A stretch of DNA of 64,000 nt from Bacilli bacterium (GCA_017962745.1 JAGCUR010000018.1:127088-191087); one strand, 5' to 3'. Shown: positions 2,296-49,438, numbered from the stretch's first letter. A program made the numbers and translations. Notes: a model not told the origin generated them from the letters alone.

Positions 2296-3576
2296 ATGAA
2301 AAAATTATTTAAAATATTAGGTATTATAATCGGATCAATCGTGATGATATTTTTAGTGTTAGCAATGTTAAATGTAATTTCTAGCTTAACACTTAAAAAT
2401 TACATTCGTACTTTTGATAAAGTAGAATATGCTAACCAATTAGTACCAGTAGTTGATGATGATGGTCATTATACATTTACTACTGATGGTGATTTTAGAA
2501 TTATGCAATTAAATGATTTGCATATTGCTGGAGGTCACTATTCACTTAAAAAAGATAAGAAAACAATCTATGAAGTAATGACTATGGTGCAAATTGAAAA
2601 ACCAGATTTAGTAATTCTAAATGGTGATAGTGTATTCTGTGTACCAGGACCACTTTTTGGTGGAGGTAGTAGTTTTAATAACAAAATGGCATCACGTAGA
2701 GTCCTAGATATTTTTGAAAAGCTAGGTGTATATTTTACTGTTGCCTTTGGTAATCACGATACAGAAGCATTTGATTATTATAACCGTGCCCAAATCGGTA
2801 AACTATATATGAAAGATAGATACCAATATTGTATATTCCAATCTGAATTTGATGGATATGGTGTTACTAACCAGTGTATTAAACTAGAAGATAGCGCTGG
2901 TAACTTAAGAAAAGCAATTATGGTATTTGATTCTAATGATTATATCGATACATCGCTAAAAGCATCAATGAACTGGTGGTATGATGTAATCCATGATGAA
3001 CAAGTACAGTGGGCAAAAGAAACTCTTCTTAGTTTAGGAGATGGCGTTAACCCTGCTAAATCATTATTCTTTTTCCATATCCCAACAGGTGAATTCGAAC
3101 AAGCATACCGTAACCTAGCTGCTAATAACTTCAACGATACAGCTGATACTAAATATATTAGCGGTGTATGGGATGAATTAGTTGACCCAGAAATGGGTGG
3201 AAGGATTTGGTATGGCGGCTGCCAAAAGAAAGATGTAGCGCCTAATGATAACGATAATTTATTTGAAGAATTAGGCCCAAGCGGTATTAATTCACTTGAA
3301 GCTATCTTTGTAGGTCATGACCACGTTAATAATGCGGTTGTGGAATACAAAGGAGTAATCCTTGCTTATGGTATGTCACTAGATAATACAGCATACAAAG
3401 ATATTAACTTATCAGGCCGCCAAAGAGGTGCCATGATTGTAACAGTTAAAAATGATAATACATTTACAATTGATCACAAAAATGCATATCTTGATTATGG
3501 CGTTGATGCTAATAAGTTTTATAATGTTTATTTAGATAAATATTTATATCCAGATTACGTTCCAACTAACAGGTAA
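2296..3576 (+). CDS. Membrane-anchored calcineurin-like metallophosphoesterase
   Basis: N-terminal TM helix. The GNHD/GNHE and VGHDH motifs of the metallophosphatase fold are present. Confidence 0.7.
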   Translation: MKKLFKILGIIIGSIVMIFLVLAMLNVISSLTLKNYIRTFDKVEYANQLVPVVDDDGHYTFTTDGDFRIMQLNDLHIAGGHYSLKKDKKTIYEVMTMVQIEKPDLVILNGDSVFCVPGPLFGGGSSFNNKMASRRVLDIFEKLGVYFTVAFGNHDTEAFDYYNRAQIGKLYMKDRYQYCIFQSEFDGYGVTNQCIKLEDSAGNLRKAIMVFDSNDYIDTSLKASMNWWYDVIHDEQVQWAKETLLSLGDGVNPAKSLFFFHIPTGEFEQAYRNLAANNFNDTADTKYISGVWDELVDPEMGGRIWYGGCQKKDVAPNDNDNLFEELGPSGINSLEAIFVGHDHVNNAVVEYKGVILAYGMSLDNTAYKDINLSGRQRGAMIVTVKNDNTFTIDHKNAYLDYGVDANKFYNVYLDKYLYPDYVPTNR

Positions 3577-10394: not shown

Positions 10395-11090
10395 ATGAAG
10401 TTTTATGGAATGGAAAAATTATCACTTGTTGATTTTGATGGCAAAATCACTTGCGTTTTGTTTTGCGGAGGGTGTAATTTCGCCTGCCCATTTTGCCATA
10501 ACTCTTCACTTGCTCTAAACCCATCTCTAAATCAAGAATTAGATTTTAGTGAAGTGATGGATTACTTAACTTTAAGGCGCAAAATGGTTGATGCGGTATG
10601 TATCACAGGTGGGGAACCTACTTTATATAAAGATTTAAAAGATTATTTTAAAATCTTTAAGGACATGGGCTTTATCACTAAACTTGATACTAATGGCACT
10701 AATCCAGATATGATAAGAGAGTTAGTAGAAGCTGGCTTAATTGATTATGTTGCCATGGACGTTAAGAATTCTTATACAAATTATTTTAAAACAATAGGAA
10801 AAGATGATCCTAAACTATTAGCTAAAGTAAAAGAAAGCATCGCTTATTTAATTGAAGGACATGTTGATTACGAATTTAGAACAACGATTGTAGAAGAATT
10901 ACATAAAGAAGAAGATTTCATCGAGTTAGCTAAAATGCTAAAAGGTGCTAAAAGGTATTTTCTTCAAAAATTCAAAAATTCTGAATACTGCATAGCTTCA
11001 GGTCTTCACGAGATAAAGATTGAAGATGCTAATAAATATTTAGAGATATTAAGAAAAGACTTAAATGATGTAAACTTGAGAGGTTATTAA
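10395..11090 (+). CDS. nrdG: Anaerobic ribonucleotide reductase activating protein (radical SAM, NrdG-like)
   Basis: 231 aa. Carries the CGGCNFACPFCHN cluster motif and the GGEPT glycine-rich SAM motif typical of small glycyl-radical activases. Confidence 0.75.
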   Translation: MKFYGMEKLSLVDFDGKITCVLFCGGCNFACPFCHNSSLALNPSLNQELDFSEVMDYLTLRRKMVDAVCITGGEPTLYKDLKDYFKIFKDMGFITKLDTNGTNPDMIRELVEAGLIDYVAMDVKNSYTNYFKTIGKDDPKLLAKVKESIAYLIEGHVDYEFRTTIVEELHKEEDFIELAKMLKGAKRYFLQKFKNSEYCIASGLHEIKIEDANKYLEILRKDLNDVNLRGY

Positions 11091-11091
11091 T

Positions 11092-12111
11092 ATGCATAAA
11101 TTTAGAAATGATTATTGCGAAATAGCACATGATGTAGTGCTAAAAGCATTAATTGATAATAAAGATTACCAGTTTAGCGGTTACGGGCTAGATGAGCATA
11201 GCCAAAACGCTGCTAAGCTTATTAAAGATTTATTTAAAGCACCAAGTGCAGATGTCCATTTTTTAGTTGGTGGAACACAAACTAATTTAACTTTTATATC
11301 TTATGTTTTAAAAGATTATGAAGCAGTGATTGCAGTAAAATCAGGTCACATCAATGTTCATGAAACCGGAGCAATTGAAGCTACTGGCCATAAAGTTTAT
11401 ACAGTGGATGGTGTAGATGGAAAGTTAACAGCTAGTGAATTAGAAAAAGCGGTTAAATACCACTGTGACGAACATATGGTAAAACCAAAATTAGCATACA
11501 TTTCTAATTCCACAGAAATTGGCACTATTTATCAAAAAGAAGAACTAACTAGTTTATATAATAAATGCCATGAGTTAGGTTTATACTTATTTATAGATGG
11601 GGCAAGGTTAGCATGTGCTCTTACAAGTGATGCCAATAATTTAGCACTAGATGATATTGCAAAAAACTGTGATGCTTTTTATTTAGGTGGAACAAAAAAT
11701 GGCCTTATGTTTGGCGAAGCTTTAGTAATTGTAAATAAAGAATTACAAGCTGATTTTAGATATCAAATAAAAAGTAAAGGCGCAATGCTAGCAAAAGGGT
11801 TTATTAGTGGTATTCAGTTTGAAGCAATTTTAAAAGATAATTTATATTTTAAGATTGCGAAAAGCGCTAATGATATGGCTAAGATATTATATGAAAGACT
11901 AGTTAGCCTAAACTTTGATGTTGATCCCGTTTATACTAATCAATTATTTGTAACTATCAAAAAGGATTTAGCATATAAACTAATTGAAGCTTTTGGCTGC
12001 GAACTATGGAAAGATTTAGGTGATAAATTAGTAATTAGATTTGTGACATCTTTTAATACAAAAGCAGAAGATATTGAAGAAGTATATAATTATTTAATAA
12101 ATATTAAATAA
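11092..12111 (+). CDS. ltaE: Low-specificity L-threonine aldolase (beta-eliminating lyase fold)
   Basis: Carries the FRNDY N-terminal motif and a PLP-lysine context (GGTKNG). About 340 aa. Confidence 0.7.
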   Translation: MHKFRNDYCEIAHDVVLKALIDNKDYQFSGYGLDEHSQNAAKLIKDLFKAPSADVHFLVGGTQTNLTFISYVLKDYEAVIAVKSGHINVHETGAIEATGHKVYTVDGVDGKLTASELEKAVKYHCDEHMVKPKLAYISNSTEIGTIYQKEELTSLYNKCHELGLYLFIDGARLACALTSDANNLALDDIAKNCDAFYLGGTKNGLMFGEALVIVNKELQADFRYQIKSKGAMLAKGFISGIQFEAILKDNLYFKIAKSANDMAKILYERLVSLNFDVDPVYTNQLFVTIKKDLAYKLIEAFGCELWKDLGDKLVIRFVTSFNTKAEDIEEVYNYLINIK

Positions 12112-12216
12112 TATAAGCAAAAAATATAAATCAATAAGAAATTAATTGTGTAAAGGTTAATTATATATATGATTGATCTTTATATGATTAATTTTTTTTA
12201 TGGGAAGGAGATAGTA

Positions 12217-13092
12217 ATGAAAGAAAATAATTATGAAGTTGTAAAGTTTAAAGATGAAGAAATTGAATTAGATGTTAATGTGAGCGCAAAAGAAGATACA
12301 GTGTGGTTAACAGTTGAGCAAATAGCTCAATTATTCGAAAGGGATAGAAGTGTAATCTCTAGACATATAAATAACATTTATACAGAAGGAGAACTTGATA
12401 AAAGGACTTCTGTGCATTTTTTGCACATAACTAATTTGAATCCTAAGAATAGGCCGCCTGAATTATATAATCTGGATGTTATTATATCAGTTGGATATAG
12501 AGTAAAATCAAAACGAGGTATTCTATTTAGAAAATGGGCAACAAATGTCTTAAAAGAATACTTATTAAAAGGCTATTCTATCAATGAAAATAGAGTAGTA
12601 GTATCTAATGAAAACTATATCGAGTTAAGAAATGAAGTAGTAAGTATAAATGATAGATTGTTAAAGATAGAAGATAAAGTGTTTGATAAAGAATATGGAT
12701 TAGATAAACTATTTTTTAATGGACAATTTTATGATGCATATACATTAATTCAAAATATCTTTGAAAAAGCTAAAGAAGAAATAATAATTATAGATAATTA
12801 TATAGATAGATCTATTTTAGATAGATTAGTAGTTAAAAAAAATGATGTTAGAGTAATTATATATAAAAATATAAATACATCTAAAATAAATGATATAGAT
12901 ATAAATACATTTAATAAACAATATAATAATTTAAAAATTATTAATACATTAAAAGTACATGATAGATATATAATTATAGACAAAATAAAATTATATCATT
13001 TAGGAGCATCAATTAAAGATTTGGGGAAGAAGATATTTTCAATAAGTGAATTAGATAAAAACTGGATAAATATGTTATTAAATAACCTATAA
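12217..13092 (+). CDS. RhuM-family (virulence RhuM/KilA-N-like) protein with an AT-rich C-terminal domain shared with the ORF6N protein at 51192
   Basis: Carries the LYNLDVIISVGYRVKS..ILFRKWATNVLKEYLLKGYSINENR RhuM core. The C-terminal 130 aa, IIIIDNYID...HDRYIIIDKIKLYHLGASIKDLG, are homologous to the tail of the 51192 gene. Start moved to the ATG with an AAGGAG RBS. Confidence 0.65.
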   Translation: MKENNYEVVKFKDEEIELDVNVSAKEDTVWLTVEQIAQLFERDRSVISRHINNIYTEGELDKRTSVHFLHITNLNPKNRPPELYNLDVIISVGYRVKSKRGILFRKWATNVLKEYLLKGYSINENRVVVSNENYIELRNEVVSINDRLLKIEDKVFDKEYGLDKLFFNGQFYDAYTLIQNIFEKAKEEIIIIDNYIDRSILDRLVVKKNDVRVIIYKNINTSKINDIDINTFNKQYNNLKIINTLKVHDRYIIIDKIKLYHLGASIKDLGKKIFSISELDKNWINMLLNNL

Positions 13093-13189
13093 AACTAATA
13101 GAAGATGATAAGAAAAACTTATGAAAAAATGAAAAAAATTTTATGAAAATGAATGAAAAAAATAGTCGTTAATAAAAGTAGCATTTTCC

Positions 13190-13218
13190 TTGATTTTAGG
13201 TTTTTAAATAGGTATAAT
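13190..13218 (+). promoter_or_regulatory. Sigma-70-type promoter of nrdD
   Basis: TTGATT-17-TATAAT, 25 bp upstream of the ATG chosen for nrdD. Preceded by phased A-tracts. Confidence 0.5.
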
Positions 13219-13242
13219 GCTAATTACAGGAGTGTGCGTGTT

Positions 13243-15603
13243 ATGTTAAATGTTAAGAAAAGAGATGGCAATATTGTACCATTCGATCTTAAGAAAATCG
13301 AAGGAGCAATCGAAAAAGCCTTTAAAGGATTAAACAAAAATTATTCTCAAGATATCATTGAGTTACTTGCTTTAAAAGTTACTGCTGATTTTAATAGCAA
13401 GGTAAAAGATGGCGTTATTGATGTGGAAGACATCCAAGATAGCGTAGAAGTAGTATTAATTCAATCGAGTTATGTTGATGTTGCTAAAGCATATATTTTA
13501 TATCGTAAGCAACATGAAAATATTCGTAATGTGAAGAATACTATTATTGACTATAAAGATACAGTTGATAACTATTTAAAGATTAATGACTGGCGTGTTA
13601 AAGAAAACTCGACTGTTACATATTCTGTTGGTGGCTTAATCTTATCAAATTCAGGTGCAGTTACAGCTAACTACTGGCTATCTGAAGTATATGATACAGA
13701 AATTGAACAAGCTCATCGTAATGCCGATATTCATATCCATGACTTATCTATGCTTACAGGATATTGTGCTGGATGGAGTTTAAAACAATTAATTCAAGAA
13801 GGCCTTGGCGGCGTTCCTGGAAAGATTACATCAACACCTGCTTCACACTTATCAACTTTATGTAACCAAATGACTAACTTTTTAGGTATTATGCAAAATG
13901 AATGGGCTGGCGCTCAAGCATTCTCATCATTTGATACATACCTAGCTCCATTTGTTAAGGTTGATAACTTATCATATAAAGAAGTAAAACAATGCATCCA
14001 ATCATTCGTATATGGTGTTAACACACCTTCACGTTGGGGAACTCAAGCTCCATTTACAAATATTACGCTTGACTGGGTAGTTCCAAATGACTTAGCAGAA
14101 CTTAATGCAATCGTTGGTGGAGTTGAACAAAACTTCAAGTACAAAGATTGCGTTAAAGAAATGGCTATGGTTAACAAAGCATTTATCGAAATCATGATTG
14201 AAGGTGATGCTAACGGAAGAGGTTTCCAATACCCTATCCCTACATATTCAATCACTCGTGATTTTGATTGGAGTGAAACTGAAAACAATAAGTTATTATT
14301 CGAAATGACAGCTAAATATGGTACTCCATATTTCTCTAACTACATCAATTCTGATATGGAACCAAGTGATGTTAGAAGTATGTGCTGCAGGTTACGACTT
14401 GACTTAAGAGAATTAAGAAAGAAATCAGGTGGTTTCTTTGGTAGTGGTGAATCAACTGGTTCAGTTGGTGTAGTTACTATCAATATGCCAAGACTTGCAT
14501 ACCTTGCTGAAAACGAAGCTGATTTCTTCAATCGTCTAGAAAAGATGATGGATTTATCAGCTAGATCTCTAAAGATTAAAAGAAATGTTATTACTAAACT
14601 TTTAGATGCCGGACTTTATCCATACACTAAAAAGTATTTAGGAACATTCAATAACCATTTCTCTACAATCGGATTAGTTGGTATGAATGAAGCTTGCTTA
14701 AATGCTAAGTGGATTGGTAAAGATTTAACTCATAAAGAAAGTATTGAATTCACTAAGAAAACTCTAAACTTTATGAGAGAAAAATTATCTGATTACCAAG
14801 AATTATATGGTGATTTATATAACTTAGAAGCAACTCCAGCTGAATCAACGGCTTATAGACTTGCAAAACATGATAAGAAGCGTTATCCAAATATCATCAC
14901 TGCTAGCGAAGGTAATAATACTCCTTATTACACTAACTCAAGTCATTTACCAGTTGGTTATACTGAAGATATCTTCAAAGCATTAGATATCCAAGATGAA
15001 CTTCAGACATTATATACATCAGGAACTGTTTTCCATGCCTTCCTTGGTCAAAAATTACCATCTTGGCAAGCTTGTGCTAAGCTAGTTAGAACAATCGCCG
15101 AAAACTACAAACTTCCATACTATACAATGTCACCTACATATTCTGTTTGTGCAAAACATGGATATATCGAAGGTGAAGAATATGTATGTCCTATTTGTGG
15201 GGAAAGAACTGAAGTATATTCAAGAATTACTGGTTACTATCGTCCTGTTCAAAACTGGAATGAAGGTAAGACTGAAGAATTCAAGAATCGTAAGACTTAT
15301 GATATCGATAATTCACATCTTTCTAAGAAAGAAGAAAAATGCGAATGCGAATGTAAGGCTGCTCCAGCTGTAAAAGAAATGATGCTTTTCACTACAAAGA
15401 CATGTCCAAATTGTAAGATGGCTAAGATGTTACTAGAAAAAGCTGGTATCAAATACAAGATGATTGACGCTGAAGATGAAAAAGATGTAACACTTCAATA
15501 TGGTGTTAGAAAAGCCCCTACATTACTAGTACCTAATGGCGATTCATTCGATCGTTATGAAAATGCTAGTGAAATTAAAGGATTTATCGAAAGACAAAAA
15601 TAA
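13243..15603 (+). CDS. nrdD: Anaerobic (class III) ribonucleoside-triphosphate reductase with a C-terminal glutaredoxin/NrdH-like domain
   Basis: ATP-cone N-terminus (VKKRDGNIVPFDLKKIEGAIEKAF) and NrdD core. C-terminal zinc ribbon CPICGERTE plus glycyl-radical loop SRITGYYRP. A further 75 aa thioredoxin-fold segment with TCPNCKMAK is in frame. Start moved to the internal ATG with an AGGAG RBS. Confidence 0.85.
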   Translation: MLNVKKRDGNIVPFDLKKIEGAIEKAFKGLNKNYSQDIIELLALKVTADFNSKVKDGVIDVEDIQDSVEVVLIQSSYVDVAKAYILYRKQHENIRNVKNTIIDYKDTVDNYLKINDWRVKENSTVTYSVGGLILSNSGAVTANYWLSEVYDTEIEQAHRNADIHIHDLSMLTGYCAGWSLKQLIQEGLGGVPGKITSTPASHLSTLCNQMTNFLGIMQNEWAGAQAFSSFDTYLAPFVKVDNLSYKEVKQCIQSFVYGVNTPSRWGTQAPFTNITLDWVVPNDLAELNAIVGGVEQNFKYKDCVKEMAMVNKAFIEIMIEGDANGRGFQYPIPTYSITRDFDWSETENNKLLFEMTAKYGTPYFSNYINSDMEPSDVRSMCCRLRLDLRELRKKSGGFFGSGESTGSVGVVTINMPRLAYLAENEADFFNRLEKMMDLSARSLKIKRNVITKLLDAGLYPYTKKYLGTFNNHFSTIGLVGMNEACLNAKWIGKDLTHKESIEFTKKTLNFMREKLSDYQELYGDLYNLEATPAESTAYRLAKHDKKRYPNIITASEGNNTPYYTNSSHLPVGYTEDIFKALDIQDELQTLYTSGTVFHAFLGQKLPSWQACAKLVRTIAENYKLPYYTMSPTYSVCAKHGYIEGEEYVCPICGERTEVYSRITGYYRPVQNWNEGKTEEFKNRKTYDIDNSHLSKKEEKCECECKAAPAVKEMMLFTTKTCPNCKMAKMLLEKAGIKYKMIDAEDEKDVTLQYGVRKAPTLLVPNGDSFDRYENASEIKGFIERQK

Positions 15604-15606
15604 ATT

Positions 15607-16512
15607 ATGATAGATATTATTGTAATTGGTGGAGGCGCAGCTGGGATGACCGCTGCCCTTTATGCTTTAAGAAGTGGAAAAAGTGTTTTAGTTTTAGAAA
15701 AGGAAAACTTTGGAGGTCAAATTGCTAATTCACCTCGAGTTGAAAACTTTCCTTCAATAAAAGAAATCAGTGGTGTTGATTTATCTAGTAACATGTTCGA
15801 TCAAATTTGTAGTTTAGGGGCTGAATTTGAGTTAGAAGATGTAGTAAGCGTTGAAAAAGTAGATGATCATTTCGTAGTAACAACTGACTATAATGAGTAT
15901 CAATCATCTGCAGTAATCATTGCAAGTGGTGTACACCACCGCAAGATTGGTGTAGAGGGTGAAGATGAGTTGGTTGGTAAAGGTGTATCATATTGTGCCG
16001 TATGCGATGGTGCTTTTTATAAAGACCAAGATGTAGTTTTAATTGGTGATGCTAATACAGCACTTCAATATGCATTGTTACTATCAAATTATTGTAAATC
16101 AGTACACATTTGCACATTATTTGATCATTTCTTCGGAGAAGATATTTTAGTTAAACGTATTAAAGATAGAGTTAATATTAAAGTTACTCATAATTTGTCT
16201 CTACAAAAGTTTAATTATGGTGATAGCCTAGAATCTTTAGATTTTATGGATACGCAAACTAAAGAAATGATTAACATACCTTGCGCTGCTTGCTTTATTG
16301 CTATTGGCCAAGTACCAAATAATGAGCGTTTTGCTAACTTAGTTGAGTTAGATCACGGCTATATCGTAACTGATGATGCTTGTAAAACAGCTACAGCTGG
16401 CGTATTTGCGGCTGGAGACTGTAGAAGCAAGAAGATTAGACAACTTACTACCGCTGTAGCTGATGGCGCTATTGCGGCTGTAGAAGCGGTTAATTATATC
16501 GACCGCAAATAA
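15607..16512 (+). CDS. Thioredoxin-reductase-like flavoprotein lacking the canonical NADPH-binding signature (FFTR-like)
   Basis: Has the GGGAAG FAD motif and a CAVCDG redox-active disulfide. The second GGGNSA motif is degenerate (GDANTA) and the HRRxxxR arginines are replaced (CTLFDHFFGE). Confidence 0.7.
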   Translation: MIDIIVIGGGAAGMTAALYALRSGKSVLVLEKENFGGQIANSPRVENFPSIKEISGVDLSSNMFDQICSLGAEFELEDVVSVEKVDDHFVVTTDYNEYQSSAVIIASGVHHRKIGVEGEDELVGKGVSYCAVCDGAFYKDQDVVLIGDANTALQYALLLSNYCKSVHICTLFDHFFGEDILVKRIKDRVNIKVTHNLSLQKFNYGDSLESLDFMDTQTKEMINIPCAACFIAIGQVPNNERFANLVELDHGYIVTDDACKTATAGVFAAGDCRSKKIRQLTTAVADGAIAAVEAVNYIDRK

Positions 16513-16517
16513 TTATT

Positions 16518-16545
16518 AACCCCACAACTAGTGGGGTTTTTTCTT
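16518..16545 (+). terminator. Rho-independent terminator after the nrdD-trxR-like pair
   Basis: aacccca-caacta-gtggggtt hairpin followed by a TTTTT run. Confidence 0.65.
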
Positions 16546-16550
16546 TTGGA

Positions 16551-20239: not shown

Positions 20240-22300
20240 ATGAAATATTATGAATTTGAGACAACTGAATATCCAATTAGTTATTATCTAGCCAAAGAAG
20301 AATACTTGCTTACTAAAAATGAGGAAGCATTTTTTATTTGGAACAATAAACCCGGTATCGTTATTGGTAAAAACCAAGTTTTAGATGATGAAGTAAATGT
20401 AGCGAAAGCTAAAGAAGATAATATCCCAATTTACAGACGTAAGAGTGGAGGCGGAGCTGTATATGCGGATAGCGGCTGCTTTATGTTTACTTTTATTGTT
20501 AAGAAAGATGTAATTTCAAACATTTATGCATCTTGCTTACGCAAGATTTATAAAGTTTTAAAACTAGCTGGTGTTAAATGCGAAATTGGGGAAAGAAATG
20601 ATATTTTAGTCGATGGCGCAAAAATATCAGGTAATGCCATTTACCTAAAGAGTAATTATGCGATCATGCACGGTAGCATTTTGTATGATTCTAAGCTTGA
20701 TGATATGGCTAAATATCTTACTCCTTCTAAAGAAAAACTAGCTAAAAATAAAGTAGCTAGTGTTAAAAGTAGGGTAACTAACTTAAAAGGTAAAACTGAT
20801 TATACTAAACTAGGCTTAATGAATTTCTTCCAAAAGTCAATTGGTACAACCAAAGGAAGACTATTTGATAGTGAAGAAAAAGTAATTGAAAGATTAGCGC
20901 AAAAATATGAAGAAGAAGCATGGCTAAGAGGTAAAAGAATTGAAACTAATTATAAAGTTAGTAAACGATTCCCTTGCGGTCAAATTACTTTTAATGCAAA
21001 ACTTGTTAAAAATGTTATTGAAGAAGTAATTATAAATGGTGATTTCTTTGAAAATTATGATATTCGTACCCTTGAACATAATTTCTTAGGGGCAAGAGTA
21101 TTTGAAATCGGCAAAGTTATCGATAAATTAACTATTTCTAAATTTATTTATGGCATAACTAATGATGAGTTTAAATCATTATTTATGGCTGTGGAGGAAA
21201 AGAAGAAAGATATGTTAGAAAAGAGAACATGTTTATATAAAAACCATATTAGACATAACGCTAAGATGGTCGAATTCGGTGGTTTCTTAATGCCACTAGA
21301 ATACACAAGCATTAGCGAAGAACATTTCGCGGTTAGAAATGATGCTGGTGTCTTTGACTGTTCACATATGGGTCAAATTAAAGTGTCAGGTGCTGATACG
21401 ATGGATTTCTTAAACTACATCTTAACATGTGATGTTAAGAGTGCACAAGTTAATCATATGGTATATGGTATGATGCTTTATCAAGATGGGACTGTTGTAG
21501 ATGACTTAATGGTTTATAAATATAAAGAAGATGAGTGCATGTTAGTAGTTAACGCATCTAATACCGATAAAGATTACGCTAATATCAATAAATATGCACC
21601 AAAGTTTAATGTAAAGATTGAAAACTTATCGGATGAATGCGGAGAACTAGCTTTACAAGGTCCAAAGGCTATAAATTATTTCTATAATTTCACAAGATAT
21701 AATCTTGATTCATTAAAGTTCTTCACCTTTGATTATTTTGAAATAGATGGGACTTTCTTCAACGTATCGCGTAGTGGATATACGGGATCTGATGGTTTTG
21801 AAATCTATGGTAAAAATAAAGATATCGTAAAATTATTTGAAGACTTAATAGAAAGCGGAGTTACTCCTTGTGGACTAGGCTGTAGAGATACACTAAGATT
21901 TGAAGCTGCTATGCCTTTATATGGCCATGAAATTAGTGAACAAACTACACCGCTTGAAGCGGGCTTAAATTATGCAGTTAGTTTTGATAAAGGCAATTTT
22001 ATCGGCCGCGAAGTTTTAGTTAAACAAAAAGAAGCAGGCGTCAAGAAAAAACTAGTAGGCCTTGAATTAAAAGAAAGAGGAATTGCTAGAAGCGGTTATA
22101 AACTATTCAAAGATGGTAAAGAAATTGGTTATATTACAACTGGTTATATGATTCCGGGTACCCAAAATTCATATGCTTTAGGTTATGTTACTAGAAAGAA
22201 TGCGAAGATTGGGACTGAAGTTGAAGTGCAAATTAGAAATAGATTAGTTAAAATGGAAGTAAGAGATAAGAAATTCTTGAAGAAAGAATACGTTAAGTAA
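20240..22300 (+). CDS. gcvT: In-frame fusion of lipoate-protein ligase (LplA) and glycine-cleavage aminomethyltransferase (GcvT)
   Basis: Residues 1-320 are LplA-like (RRKSGGGAVYADSGC, GNAIY...HGS). Residues 330-686 are GcvT (KRTCLYKNH..KMVEFGGFLMPLEY, GYTGSDGFEI). A single ORF with no stop between the two parts. Confidence 0.75.
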   Translation: MKYYEFETTEYPISYYLAKEEYLLTKNEEAFFIWNNKPGIVIGKNQVLDDEVNVAKAKEDNIPIYRRKSGGGAVYADSGCFMFTFIVKKDVISNIYASCLRKIYKVLKLAGVKCEIGERNDILVDGAKISGNAIYLKSNYAIMHGSILYDSKLDDMAKYLTPSKEKLAKNKVASVKSRVTNLKGKTDYTKLGLMNFFQKSIGTTKGRLFDSEEKVIERLAQKYEEEAWLRGKRIETNYKVSKRFPCGQITFNAKLVKNVIEEVIINGDFFENYDIRTLEHNFLGARVFEIGKVIDKLTISKFIYGITNDEFKSLFMAVEEKKKDMLEKRTCLYKNHIRHNAKMVEFGGFLMPLEYTSISEEHFAVRNDAGVFDCSHMGQIKVSGADTMDFLNYILTCDVKSAQVNHMVYGMMLYQDGTVVDDLMVYKYKEDECMLVVNASNTDKDYANINKYAPKFNVKIENLSDECGELALQGPKAINYFYNFTRYNLDSLKFFTFDYFEIDGTFFNVSRSGYTGSDGFEIYGKNKDIVKLFEDLIESGVTPCGLGCRDTLRFEAAMPLYGHEISEQTTPLEAGLNYAVSFDKGNFIGREVLVKQKEAGVKKKLVGLELKERGIARSGYKLFKDGKEIGYITTGYMIPGTQNSYALGYVTRKNAKIGTEVEVQIRNRLVKMEVRDKKFLKKEYVK

Positions 22301-46764: not shown

Positions 46765-47631
46765 ATGGAAAAAGTATTGATCATTTATTTTAGTGGTATG
46801 GGTAATACTAAACTACTTGCTAATATGGCTAAGGATGAATTCCTCGCTAAAGGCTATGATACAAAAGTGGTAGATGTATGTAGCGATGAAGTGGTTGAAA
46901 TTAATGACTATAACTATCTAGTTGTAGCATACCCAATATATGCCTTTAATGCTCCAGGGCCTATTATTAGTTATATTAAGAAATTTAATAAAATTAATAA
47001 TGATCTTAAATGTTTAATTTTAAAAGATTCCGGTGAATACCTTTTCTGGAACAATGCTTCAAGTTTGCAACTTACTAGCATTTTAAAGAGAAAAGGAATA
47101 AAGATATTTAGTGAATATCATTATTTATTACCTTATTCATTTGTTTTTAGACATACAGACTATATGGCATATAAAATGCTATATACGCTTAAATATTTAC
47201 TGCCTTTAGATATTGATGATTTTCTAGGCGGTAAATATCATAAGCTTGATAGGTTTTTCTTAGATAGGCCCTTTAGTTTTGTTTTTAGAATCCAACGCTT
47301 TGGGGGTAGACTTAACGGTAGATTTTATAAAGTAGATCAAGAAAAGTGTATTAAGTGCAATAAATGCATTAATAACTGTCCAGCTAATAACATTAAAATC
47401 AAAGATGATAAATTTATTTTTGGTGGAAAATGCTTAATGTGTCAACGTTGCGTTGTAAACTGTCCGCATACTGCTATTAAAGCCGGCTTCTTTAAAAGGT
47501 GGATGGTTGGTGGCGCTTACTCGTTTAGAGAAACAACAGAGTTTGAAGTAGAAAAGAAACCAAAATACTGTGCAAAAAGTTATAAGAAATATTTTGAAGA
47601 AAGTGTAAAGCGAGGTAACAAAATTGTCTAA
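46765..47631 (+). CDS. Flavodoxin-like domain fused to a 2x[4Fe-4S] ferredoxin domain (EFR1-type)
   Basis: N-terminal flavodoxin fold (KVLIIYFSGMGNTK). C-terminal CIKCNKCINNCP and CLMCQRCVVNCP ferredoxin motifs. Confidence 0.65.
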   Translation: MEKVLIIYFSGMGNTKLLANMAKDEFLAKGYDTKVVDVCSDEVVEINDYNYLVVAYPIYAFNAPGPIISYIKKFNKINNDLKCLILKDSGEYLFWNNASSLQLTSILKRKGIKIFSEYHYLLPYSFVFRHTDYMAYKMLYTLKYLLPLDIDDFLGGKYHKLDRFFLDRPFSFVFRIQRFGGRLNGRFYKVDQEKCIKCNKCINNCPANNIKIKDDKFIFGGKCLMCQRCVVNCPHTAIKAGFFKRWMVGGAYSFRETTEFEVEKKPKYCAKSYKKYFEESVKRGNKIV

Positions 47632-48067
47632 ATTATTTATTTATTATTCAAATACTGGTAGTGGTGATGCAGTAGCAAGCAAATTAGCTACTTTAGGATA
47701 TGAAATAAGAAAAGTTACTCCTAAAAAAGATTTACCAAAAGCATTCTTTTTTAAAGTAATGAGCGGTGGCTTTTTAGCTAGTCTAAATGCTAAAGCTAAA
47801 CTTAACGAATTTGATGCAAATATTGAAGGTTACGAAGAAGTTGTAATTGGTTCCCCTATTTGGAATGGAAGACTTTCTACACCTATTAATACAGTATTAT
47901 CTCTTTTAGATTTAAATGGTAAAAATGTATCATTTATACTGTATGCAGGAAGTGGTGCTGCCAAGGCTGCACCAAAACAAATCAAAAAATTTGTAAGTGA
48001 AGCTAAGATTACTATCCTGAAAGAACCTAAGAAATATCCAGAAGAATTAGAAAAGATTGGTGAATAA
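47624..48067 (+). CDS. Short-chain flavodoxin-like protein (TTG start)
   Basis: 147 aa, flavodoxin-type N-terminus (KLFIYYSNTGSGDAVASKLA). TTG start with GAGGT RBS, overlapping the previous gene by 8 bp. Confidence 0.55.
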   Translation: MSKLFIYYSNTGSGDAVASKLATLGYEIRKVTPKKDLPKAFFFKVMSGGFLASLNAKAKLNEFDANIEGYEEVVIGSPIWNGRLSTPINTVLSLLDLNGKNVSFILYAGSGAAKAAPKQIKKFVSEAKITILKEPKKYPEELEKIGE

Positions 48068-49438
48068 ATGTATAAAAAAGTAAAAGATTATATCGAAACA
48101 ATAGATGGCATATCTCATACTACCTTTGATCCGCACGGACCAGGAGTAGTAAGGATTCACCTAGTACCACCCGAAAAGATTAAACTCGGTTTAGCTTGGA
48201 CCATTATTTTAAATGGTCAAGATGTAATACCTATTACCTTTGGTTGGGCAGTATTACTGCGTGAATTTATTAATGCTGTTAACAAAAGAAGTGGCGTAGC
48301 TTTAGAAGATGAAGAAATTGCCCATATCATTAATGAAGCAATTGAAGCTGCTAGTAAAGTATTTGATAAGACTAACAAAAAGACCCTTCGTGCCGATTTA
48401 AAACAAATCGTAGAAACATTAACTAAGATTGCAAGAAAAGAAAAGATATCTGAGATAATAGAATATGCACCTTTATCTACATATGCTAAATACATGGCTG
48501 CTCCGCACAGAATGGATTTAATGATTTCCGCCATGAGCAAAAATGGGGCTTGGCATTGTAATCAAAAATGTTTAAATTGTTATGCGGCAGGGCAGATTCA
48601 AGCAAATGTAGAAGAAATTGATACTGAAAGTTGGAAGAAAATTATTGATAAATGCAAAGCTTCCATGATTCCTCAATTAACATTTACTGGTGGAGAGCCT
48701 ACACTAAGATCAGATTTAGTAGAACTTGTTAATTATTCACAGTGGTTTGTAACCCGCCTTAATACTAATGGGCAGCTATTATCTAAAGAGTTATGTGCTA
48801 AGTTATATGAAGCAAGCCTTGATAGTGTTCAAGTAACACTATATTCACATAAAAAAGAAATTCATAACTTTCTAGTTGGCGCCGATGGTTTTGATAAAAC
48901 CATTGAGGGCATTAAAAATGCGATTGATGCTAGGTTAAATGTTAGCATCAATACACCATTATGTGATCTAAATAAAGATTATGTGGATATGGTTAAATAT
49001 GCTCATGAAGTGCTAGGTGTTAATTATTTCACATGTTCTGGTTTAATTTTAACTGGTAATGCTACGGATACTGCTAATTCTAGATTATCTAAAGCAGAAA
49101 TCTTAAATGTTTTAAAAGAAGCTAAAGCGTATACTGATTCAAATAATTGCGAATTATCATTTACATCGCCTGGTTGGATTGATAGCGATATTTTAAGAAA
49201 GATGAAAATGATGGTGCCTTCTTGTGGAGCATGTTCATCAAATATGGCTATTACGCCAAATGGCATGGTAGTACCTTGCCAAAGTTGGCTTTCAGATACC
49301 CCACTTGGTAACATGCTAACTGATGAATGGAAAAAGATTTGGAATAGTAGAAGATGTGTAAAGTTAAGAAAAGAAAATTCTAAAGCTAATGATTTATGTC
49401 CATTAAGCGGTAGAATTGAGGGTGAAGTAAATGAGTAA
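48068..49438 (+). CDS. Radical SAM enzyme with C-terminal SPASM/twitch domain and a 160-aa N-terminal extension
   Basis: CNQKCLNCY (CX3CX2C) at aa about 164 and a GGEPTL SAM motif. The C-terminal Cys-rich region (CSGLIL...SCGACSS...VPCQSW...CVKL...CPLSG) is typical of SPASM auxiliary clusters. Confidence 0.75.
   Translation: MYKKVKDYIETIDGISHTTFDPHGPGVVRIHLVPPEKIKLGLAWTIILNGQDVIPITFGWAVLLREFINAVNKRSGVALEDEEIAHIINEAIEAASKVFDKTNKKTLRADLKQIVETLTKIARKEKISEIIEYAPLSTYAKYMAAPHRMDLMISAMSKNGAWHCNQKCLNCYAAGQIQANVEEIDTESWKKIIDKCKASMIPQLTFTGGEPTLRSDLVELVNYSQWFVTRLNTNGQLLSKELCAKLYEASLDSVQVTLYSHKKEIHNFLVGADGFDKTIEGIKNAIDARLNVSINTPLCDLNKDYVDMVKYAHEVLGVNYFTCSGLILTGNATDTANSRLSKAEILNVLKEAKAYTDSNNCELSFTSPGWIDSDILRKMKMMVPSCGACSSNMAITPNGMVVPCQSWLSDTPLGNMLTDEWKKIWNSRRCVKLRKENSKANDLCPLSGRIEGEVNE

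Follow-up and report, generated by a model that had tools for sequence, protein, structure and literature searches.

Two adjacent genes in a 64,000-nucleotide stretch of DNA from a Bacilli bacterium (GCA_017962745.1, JAGCUR010000018.1:127088-191087; the whole stretch is called the window below) probably form, as judged from their sequences, a co-transcribed and dedicated disulfide-relay reducing system for class III ribonucleotide reductase (RNR). The first gene encodes the class III RNR NrdD fused to a thioredoxin-fold redoxin domain (NrdD-Grx). The second encodes a thioredoxin reductase (TrxR) homologue in which the motifs that bind nicotinamide adenine dinucleotide phosphate (NADPH) are lost and replaced by other conserved motifs. 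A relay from the reductase through the fused redoxin to NrdD is proposed because of the domain architecture, the catalytic residues, the near-obligate synteny of the two genes, the pattern of fusion and fission among genomes and the precedents in other RNR systems. This relay was part of an original prediction made from the window, and it stands as the best explanation of the fixed synteny, the unfused operon and the catalytic residues.

The catalytic subunit

The NrdD part was assigned by family models and by alignment to the Thermotoga maritima enzyme (4COI), and its residues are numbered from the Met encoded at position 13243. The protein passed the NrdD models PF13597 (635 bits, cut-off 26), TIGR02487 (516, cut-off 326) and NF006126 (1135, cut-off 548). 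The features of a class III RNR were all found, namely the glycyl-radical Gly664 in RITGYYRP (15232-15234), a zinc-ribbon-like site (C636-x2-H639 ... C649-x2-C652), the finger-loop residues Cys381 and Cys382, and the presence of nrdG. In the alignment, the finger loop Met380-Cys381-Cys382-Arg383 (14380-14391) corresponds to T. maritima Ser-Cys-Cys-Arg 328-331, Cys175 (13765-13767) to Cys125 on strand beta-A, and Glu529 (14827-14829) to Glu495. Cys175, MCCR, Glu529, RITGYYRP and the C-x2-H...C-x2-C site are invariant in the 64 full-length fusions compared.

An extra Cys and the Glu define the NrdD2 subtype of Wei et al. (2014), in which turnover creates a disulfide that a thioredoxin-type protein then reduces (Aurelius et al. 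2015; Burnim et al. 2022, PMC9669993). The original prediction had singled out extra cysteines in NrdD as informative, and the double-Cys finger loop and active-site Glu of redoxin-dependent class III RNRs are indeed present. The "thioredoxin-only" pattern of NrdD2 described by Burnim et al. (2022), in which the finger-loop Met is absent, was not found, as Met380 is invariant, and the NrdD3 subtype of methanogens (a third Cys and no Glu) was not matched, as Glu529 is present. The Met heading the finger-loop motif is the residue that serves formate chemistry (Aurelius et al. 2015; Burnim et al. 2022, PMC9669993). It is kept in 83% of double-Cys NrdDs, for which formate and a redoxin are both possible reductants (Burnim et al. 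2022, PMC9669993). By its residues, the NrdD of the window is equipped for redoxin-dependent turnover.

Redoxin domain and linker

The open reading frame (ORF) of nrdD-grx runs from 13153 or 13243 to 15603 with no stop codon or frameshift inside, which agrees with the predicted fusion. The extension past NrdD had been put at about 75 residues; the extension itself is there, and its length is about 100 residues, made up of a 25-residue linker and a 74-residue domain. The C-terminal segment is a CxxC redoxin of the thioredoxin fold and contains the TCPNC motif, as had been proposed. The Pfam Glutaredoxin model (PF00462) matches residues 714-761 with 35 bits, above its gathering score of 22.9, and the CxxC and cis-Pro of this fold family are both found. 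CPNC and the cis-Pro motif APT show no variation across the fused domains and the stand-alone versions of 72-84 residues that also exist. The consensus of the domain is LLFTTKTCPNCKMAKMLLDKAGI.Y..IDAEEN..LT..YGV.KAPTLLVPNG..YD.YENAS.IKGYIES.

The label "glutaredoxin/NrdH-like" was accurate at the level of the fold and not for any specific family, since the more specific NCBIfam models scored far under their cut-offs in a profile check: YruB with 29 bits against 88, Grx3 (TIGR02181) with 26 against 90 and NrdH (TIGR02194) with 22 against 85.75. Two candidate identities were rejected on these scores and on their motifs. Classical glutathione-dependent glutaredoxins bind glutathione through a GG.DD region, and the domain has no GG.DD after the cis-Pro strand and reads CPNC instead of CPYC. 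NrdH-redoxins are marked by a C[VM]QC active site and a WSGFRP motif, and the domain again reads CPNC and lacks WSGFRP. The nearest solved relatives are all weak matches (E 1e-9 to 1e-5): the C-terminal unit of the Aquifex and Pyrococcus "glutaredoxin-like" protein disulfide oxidoreductases (PDO), the Mj0307 thioredoxin, and NrdH proteins, which match only at E 1e-5. PDO, Mj0307 and NrdH proteins are reduced by thioredoxin reductases and not by glutathione.

The linker of the window's protein holds KKEEKCECECK, with cysteines at C700, C702 and C704. Across orthologues the linker is 25-46 residues long, variable in sequence and rich in Glu, Lys and Ala. Its Cys content is 6.9%, compared with 1.8% elsewhere in the protein, an enrichment of roughly 4-fold. 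Pairs of the CC, CxC or CxxC type occur in 43 of the 64 linkers, and seven have no Cys. Thus, the CECEC linker noted in the original prediction is real in the window and is not conserved as such, and CECEC was rejected as a strictly conserved shuttle or metal site because linker length and sequence vary and some linkers lack Cys altogether.

Two further observations concern the redoxin and the linker. A 128-residue protein from a 529-bp contig (P0168) joins the first ~47 reductase residues directly to a CPNC redoxin domain, which points either to a chimeric assembly or to a rearranged fusion of reductase and redoxin. In addition, a predicted membrane protein encoded 3.4-5.3 kb upstream of nrdD at eight loci (L072, positions 2606-3418, and 7 others) has a Cys/Glu-rich tail, ACECGECDCAECDCAECACSENEPCSCENGNNCECACS, that resembles the Cys/Glu-rich linkers of NrdD-Grx.

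The reductase homologue

The protein encoded next to NrdD-Grx keeps the features of a low-molecular-mass TrxR apart from those that bind NADPH. The flavin adenine dinucleotide (FAD) motif GGGAAG (G8-G10-G13, of the GxGxxG type), the redox disulfide C130-A-V-C133 (CAVCDG) and the two-domain fold are present, and GxGxxA and HRRxxxR are not. Compared with the Bacillus cereus TrxR (7aaw), GGGDSA has become GDANTA and HRRDTLR has become CTLFDHF; these sites are G147-D-A-N-T-A152-L-Q-Y and C169-T-L-F-D173-H-F-F in the window's protein. A TrxR homologue with just these kept and altered motifs had been predicted, and the absence of NADPH-binding residues was confirmed both by the alignment to 7aaw and in the orthologues. 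HRR is absent from all 77 orthologues aligned, and GD[AG]N[TS]AL[QS]Y and [x]TLFD[KRH]FF[GA][DE] are conserved in the same 77 with little variation. The Asp of TLFD sits at the position of the Asp in HRRD, and the pyrophosphate loop carries an invariant Asp. As read from the alignment, no acidic residue occupies the +18 position, which we take to be acidic in NADH-preferring relatives such as AhpF. The NADPH TrxR equivalog model TIGR01292 scored 310.2 bits, below its cut-off of 343.45. The AlphaFold2 (AF2) model of the reductase has a pLDDT of 91 and a TM score of 0.93 to both the B. cereus (7aaw) and the Staphylococcus aureus (4gcm) TrxR. The aromatic pair after CxxCDG, which contacts thioredoxin, is kept as AFY or AFF.

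NADPH motifs have been lost from TrxRs repeatedly, each time with a motif and donor of its own, for example ferredoxin in the ferredoxin/flavodoxin-dependent flavin thioredoxin reductases (FFTRs) and F420H2 in DFTR (Valette et al. 2017, PMC5627308). The atypical TrxRs without these motifs, namely FFTR, DFTR, DvTRi (with TQ/NGK) and TR3, are mutually unrelated (PMC5627308). In our analysis the reductase was placed apart from FFTRs by similarity scores and motif content. Bacterial NADPH reductases of solved structure scored 172-212 bits, compared with 98-124 for the Clostridium acetobutylicum FFTR structures (6GNA/6GNC/6GND), 121 for the Gloeobacter FFTR (GvFFTR, 5J60) and 100 for 5NII, which is probably the Desulfovibrio vulgaris TRi. 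No FFTR occurred within the top 50 structural matches of the reductase model, and a PDB search with a library match that lacks the motifs (P0445) likewise placed NADPH reductases, and not FFTRs, on top. Among 1.84 billion representative proteins, the nearest relatives all bear G[DS][AG][NP]..A.QY, and a neighbour-joining tree groups those with the signature (17 representatives at 50% identity) in a single clade. Outside the clade, the closest proteins share 42-50% identity and are ordinary reductases that carry GGGxxA and HRR.

Degeneration does not account for the altered NADPH site, because the new motifs are conserved in 77 orthologues and mark a monophyletic clade; simple decay of the site was therefore rejected. 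Membership of the DvTRi type was also rejected, as the replacement motif is TLFD[KRH]FF and not TQ/NGK. From these comparisons, the reductase very probably represents a separate lineage and very probably works independently of NAD(P)H. A stronger suggestion is made more tentatively, and we hold it somewhat less likely than its opposite: the clade defined by GD[AG]N[TS]AL[QS]Y and TLFD[KRH]FF might be a previously unrecognised class of TrxR that arose from NADPH enzymes independently of FFTRs, takes electrons from a donor other than a pyridine nucleotide and passes them to no acceptor but a redoxin tethered to an RNR.

Conservation of the module among genomes

The species-representative genomes of GTDB, one per species, were scanned with a profile of the redoxin domain and the loci were confirmed by tblastn. 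At least 588 loci of the NrdD-Grx type were found, and the counts of synteny refer to the best 80 of these. In 79 of the 80, the redoxin domain continues in frame from an NrdD core that is 76-88% identical to that of the window. A reductase homologue (50-64% identical) begins between -7 and +313 bp past the stop codon, again in 79 of 80, and the sole exception lies at a contig end. At 32 or more of the 80 loci, nrdG lies no further than a few kb from the module, often directly 3' of the reductase gene. When all neighbouring ORFs at these loci were clustered, only NrdD-Grx, the reductase and NrdG were conserved, and the others were lineage-specific housekeeping genes. A protein search gave more than 120 protein clusters of 786-795 residues that share the ATP-cone, NRDD and Glutaredoxin domains; the samples behind them are numerous and independent. 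The hosts are uncultured gut and rumen Firmicutes, including Clostridia, Christensenella-like and Bacilli metagenome-assembled genomes, Erysipelotrichaceae, Anaeroplasmataceae and Candidatus Onthovivens.

Two arrangements outside the standard one were also found. An unfused operon encodes nrdD (664 residues), grx (76), the reductase (305) and nrdG (229) as separate genes, and a divergent member of the reductase clade, 49% identical to that of the window, again adjoins an NrdD-Grx fusion and nrdG. The fixed synteny together with the unfused four-gene operon argues strongly that the proteins work together.

Viral copies

Fifty viral contigs from IMG/VR with close relatives of NrdD were also inspected. 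The CPNC domain is fused to 28 of the 50 viral NrdDs (L102-L151), and many of the 50 lack the ATP-cone. Several of the viral nrdD genes are interrupted by inserts of 0.5-1 kb, so that they match in several pieces, for example nrdD-grx at L094 2597-7913 and L101 4212-7892 and in L146 and L147; this suggests introns, inteins or homing-endonuclease insertions.

Reductases of the same clade are also encoded in IMG/VR contigs of ~140 kb that resemble large phages (L090 7986-8903, L087 6001-6969, L088 5915-6883); their genes are flanked by those for ClpP and PhoH, and no NrdD lies within 8 kb. The reductase of L090 shows the full signature GDGNTAAQY...TLFDKFF. Genes nearby encode ThyX, deoxycytidine monophosphate deaminase and a RecD2-like helicase, possibly with an intein. 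The NrdD cores are 75-88% identical across Clostridia, Bacilli and viral contigs, and because they are so alike their sequences are compatible with horizontal spread, possibly by way of phages.

Proposed electron path and alternative explanations

In the proposed mechanism, each turnover of NrdD would oxidise Cys175 on strand beta-A and one of the finger-loop residues Cys381 and Cys382, with Glu529 as the proton donor. The tethered CPNC domain (Cys721/Cys724) would swing in on its flexible 25-residue linker to re-reduce this disulfide, and the oxidised domain would in turn be reduced by the downstream flavoenzyme, whose FAD passes electrons to Cys130/Cys133. The flavoenzyme would most probably do this without NAD(P)H, because its NADPH site is replaced by a different conserved surface. 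The complete path would run from the donor to the reductase FAD, to C130/C133, to C721/C724, to the disulfide of C175 with C381 or C382, and finally to the nucleotide.

By exclusion, the likeliest donor to the flavoenzyme would be a low-potential carrier, ferredoxin or flavodoxin. Such a carrier is attractive because NrdG itself needs a low-potential donor of this kind, ferredoxin or flavodoxin, and because the window encodes such carriers. These are a 2x[4Fe-4S] protein of 288 residues (46765-47631) and a flavodoxin-like protein (PF12682, 47624-48067), which adjoin a gene for a radical-SAM/SPASM enzyme (48068-49438) in a cluster spanning 46765-49438. The cluster lies ~31 kb from nrdD and has no link to the module.

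Several results weigh against the proposed relay. The finger loop keeps its Met, and MCCR is a combination that leaves formate chemistry possible (PMC9669993), so formate use stays compatible with the sequence. When all neighbours at the 80 loci were clustered, no ferredoxin or flavodoxin gene was conserved near the module. In none of the 50 viral contigs was a reductase found within 3 kb of nrdD, and the fused domain can evidently be served there by something encoded elsewhere. In 16 of 78 orthologues the reductase reads GDGNTA, which still fits GxGxxA and may, by sequence, still allow a dinucleotide to bind. Lastly, the GR/KG motif for docking of thioredoxin has not kept its basic residue throughout (GSG, GKG, GNG and GHG occur). 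The loss of this residue while the aromatic pair is kept resembles what has been reported for a partner-specific atypical reductase (PMC5627308).

The alternatives differ in what feeds the flavoenzyme or in what reduces the nucleotide. The original prediction took the lost motifs as the signature of an FFTR fed by ferredoxin or flavodoxin, which we consider unlikely. GxGxxA and HRRxxxR are missing from FFTRs too and the reductase resembles the clostridial FFTRs in having no C-terminal tail, but loss of these motifs is common to unrelated atypical TrxRs, having arisen several times independently with different donors (PMC5627308), and the motif that replaces them here is specific to the clade. 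The scores against CaFFTR (98-124 bits) and GvFFTR (121) fall below those against NADPH reductases (172-212), there are 0 FFTRs among the top 50 structural matches, and the nearest relatives beyond the clade in the 1.84-billion-protein library are ordinary HRR reductases. The hosts are fermentative anaerobic Firmicutes, in which reduced ferredoxin is generally abundant, and the window has its 2x[4Fe-4S] and flavodoxin-like genes ~31 kb off, yet the module has no linked ferredoxin gene; no gene for such a carrier is conserved beside it, and the predicted donor was a guess. It is similarly improbable that the same relay operates with a flavoenzyme whose remodelled site still accepts NADH or NADPH. 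In every orthologue hydrophobic residues (T/L/F...F) take the place of all three arginines that hold the 2'-phosphate, even though the Asp of HRRD is kept and the fold with its "NADPH domain" is intact and modelled with high confidence. A formal GxGxxA survives as GDGNTA in 16 of 78 orthologues, whereas in most the second Gly is Ala, and the pyrophosphate loop has gained an invariant Asp. NADH-preferring relatives of TrxR are known, such as T. maritima TR and AhpF (PMC5627308), but the position that specifies NADH has no acidic residue here. JGI labels the orthologues "thioredoxin reductase (NADPH)" by homology only, and the TIGR01292 score is below its cut-off.

In another reading, formate would reduce the nucleotide and the thiol relay would keep the NrdD cysteines reduced, or rescue or regulate the enzyme after oxidative episodes. 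MCCR with its Met is the arrangement thought to permit formate chemistry (PMC9669993), and the claim of formate independence in the original prediction went too far, as the motif fits formate or a redoxin. Phage copies with the domain and no nearby reductase would suit this reading, as would the frequent link of anaerobe thioredoxin systems to stress. Nevertheless, it appears quite unlikely, since the Glu and extra Cys are tied to disulfide-based turnover, the 1:1 tether and the reductase linkage in 79 of 80 genomes fit a per-turnover reductant better than occasional repair, and an NrdB-Grx fusion is a precedent for a fused redoxin as turnover reductant (PMC6187632). Finally, an assembly or sequencing artefact, in which a stop codon was lost between nrdD and a separate grx, has practically no chance of being correct. 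Separate nrdD and grx genes exist in some genomes, as do the stand-alone domains of 72-84 residues, but 79 of 80 independent species-level assemblies show the two joined in frame, more than 120 protein clusters from many samples contain the fusion, and its linkers vary in both length and sequence. Recurrence on this scale is far past chance or sequencing error, and the comparative data refute the artefact. The disulfide relay from a dedicated flavoenzyme through the tethered redoxin to NrdD is thus the reading preferred in this manuscript.

Layout of the locus

The features of the locus are listed in Table 1. The start of nrdD-grx is placed at ATG 13243 because of the promoter-like site, the AGGAG upstream and the length of the homologues (786-795 residues). 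In a promoter scan, the count of sigma-70-like matches in the region was not above the expectation from shuffled sequence; the promoter assignment rests on position and not on statistics, and thus backs the start codon weakly. The fusion gene ends with TAA at 15601-15603 and the reductase ATG follows three bases on, at 15607. The promoter-like site and the terminator-like hairpin flank precisely these two genes. They look like one transcription unit because the strong hairpin and its T-run close the pair and a fresh promoter-like site precedes the next gene, an unrelated formiminotransferase. An Rfam scan of 9-18 kb found no riboswitch and no other RNA element.

Table 1. Features of the nrdD-grx locus, in window coordinates.
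Feature	Coordinates	Strand	Evidence or remark
nrdD-grx fusion gene, 786 residues (ATP-cone, class III RNR core, linker, CPNC redoxin domain)	13243..15603	+	ORF; PF03477, PF13597, PF00462; NF006126
ATP-cone, allosteric activity site, residues 3-92	13249..13518	+	PF03477, E 1.4e-24
NrdD catalytic core, residues 121-686	13603..15300	+	Pfam NRDD, E 1.4e-190; alignment to T. maritima NrdD
Linker, residues 688-712, IDNSHLSKKEEKCECECKAAPAVKE	15304..15378	+	Variable, acidic, Cys-enriched
Thioredoxin-fold redoxin domain, residues 713-786, active site C721-P-N-C724, cis-Pro motif KAPT	15379..15600	+	PF00462, 35 bits
Atypical thioredoxin-reductase homologue, 301 residues	15607..16512	+	Pfam/NCBIfam models, alignment, AF2 model
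Promoter-like TTGATT-17 nt-TATAAT (13190-13218) and ribosome-binding site AGGAG (13228-13232)	13190..13232	+	Consensus match
Terminator-like hairpin AACCCCACAACTAGTGGGGTT, then T-run	16518..16548	+	3' of reductase gene
nrdG, radical-SAM activase of NrdD, 2.1 kb upstream	10395..11090	+	TIGR02495 (NrdG2), 207.6 bits, cut-off 131
Beta-eliminating lyase / threonine-aldolase-like gene	11092-12111		Between nrdG and nrdD
RhuM-family gene	12169-13092		Between threonine-aldolase-like gene and nrdD

The position of nrdG about 2 kb upstream, with the threonine-aldolase-like and RhuM genes between, is as had been predicted. The RhuM ORF lies where the window is richest in AT (GC 0.26 for 12001-14000). It may be the remnant of an inserted element that parted nrdG from nrdD, since the RhuM profile matches only residues 93-150 of the ORF. 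Elsewhere, the window carries an ISL3-family transposase gene (PF01610, PF14690; 26936-28237, - strand) and, at 20240-22300, an ORF that fuses a lipoate-protein ligase domain (LplA) with the glycine-cleavage T protein, an aminomethyltransferase.

Significance of the module

The module names its partners genetically: the catalytic subunit, the tethered redoxin, the dedicated reductase and the activase. Three or four recombinant proteins would therefore suffice for a direct test of how this RNR is reduced. The reductases add a well-populated lineage, defined by its motifs, to the short list of TrxRs that gave up NADPH, and neither "thioredoxin reductase (NADPH)" nor "probably FFTR" is a safe label for the clade. 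The module is common in Christensenellales-like Clostridia, small-genome gut Bacilli and phages, and so may be a major route to DNA precursors among gut anaerobes. If the clade were a new class of TrxR, the module would be the fourth self-contained reducing system for class III RNR, after formate, thioredoxin (Trx)/TrxR/NADPH and NrdH with ferredoxin:disulfide reductase (FDR). Anaerobic synthesis of deoxynucleoside triphosphates would then be tied directly to the low-potential ferredoxin/flavodoxin pool in a large group of uncultured Firmicutes of the gut and in their large phages, a part of which carry the reductase gene alone.

Comparison with known systems

Reduction of a class III RNR by a redoxin is a known principle, and the combination of a tethered redoxin with a dedicated, motif-defined, non-NADPH flavin reductase appears to be undescribed. 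The searchable literature yielded nothing about the reductase encoded beside NrdD-Grx, about its motif, about how widespread the module is or about the copies in phages, although an earlier mention may exist outside it. In Methanosarcina barkeri, Wei et al. are said to have described in 2015 (Biochemistry) an NrdD3 with an NrdH-like redoxin and an FDR encoded with nrdD. That system and the one proposed here are alike in that each supplies a class III RNR through a small redoxin and an NAD(P)H-independent disulfide reductase, both of them dedicated to it. However, the M. barkeri reductase is an Fe-S enzyme of the FTR type and not a flavin enzyme of the TrxR type, its NrdD3 lacks the Glu that is present here, and its redoxin is separate rather than fused.

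One thioredoxin-dependent and one NrdH/FDR-dependent class III RNR have been characterised so far (Aurelius et al. 2015). The Neisseria bacilliformis NrdD uses Trx, and the protein factor required by T. maritima NrdD was never identified (Aurelius et al. 2015). These NrdD2 enzymes (N. bacilliformis, Wei et al. 2014, PNAS; T. maritima structures 4COI/4U3E) share with that of the window the glycyl-radical NrdD, the beta-A Cys, the double-Cys finger loop and the Glu, and, in the relay proposed here, the reduction of the turnover disulfide by a thioredoxin-fold protein. In contrast to NrdD2, the redoxin here is fused to the C-terminus of NrdD, the reductase is adjacent, dedicated and non-canonical in place of housekeeping Trx/TrxR/NADPH, and the finger loop is MCCR, with Met kept, and not SCCR.

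The Grx-ATP-cone-NrdB protein of Facklamia ignava has a fused Grx that is a working reductant of RNR (Rozman Grinberg et al. 2018, PMC6187632), a built-in role like the one proposed here. That protein is a class I NrdB and depends on glutathione, whereas an NrdD fusion is only a table entry in the same study: its RefSeq census lists one "Glutaredoxin:NrdD", from Lachnospiraceae bacterium TWA4 (WP_082039398.1). Among the reductases, FFTRs (C. acetobutylicum 6GNA/6GNC, Gloeobacter 5J60/6XTF) also combine the low-molecular-mass TrxR fold, FAD and CxxC with the absence of NADPH motifs, but the window's reductase is much less similar to them than to NADPH reductases, has a clade-specific replacement motif and lacks a C-terminal Trp tail. 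The D. vulgaris TRi, TR3 and the F420H2-dependent DFTR of Methanocaldococcus jannaschii are likewise independent lineages from NADPH reductases in which the 2'-phosphate site was remodelled, each with its own motif and partner (PMC5627308). In the present clade the motif is TLFD[KRH]FF, the proposed partner is a redoxin fused to an RNR, and the hosts are gut Firmicutes and phages.

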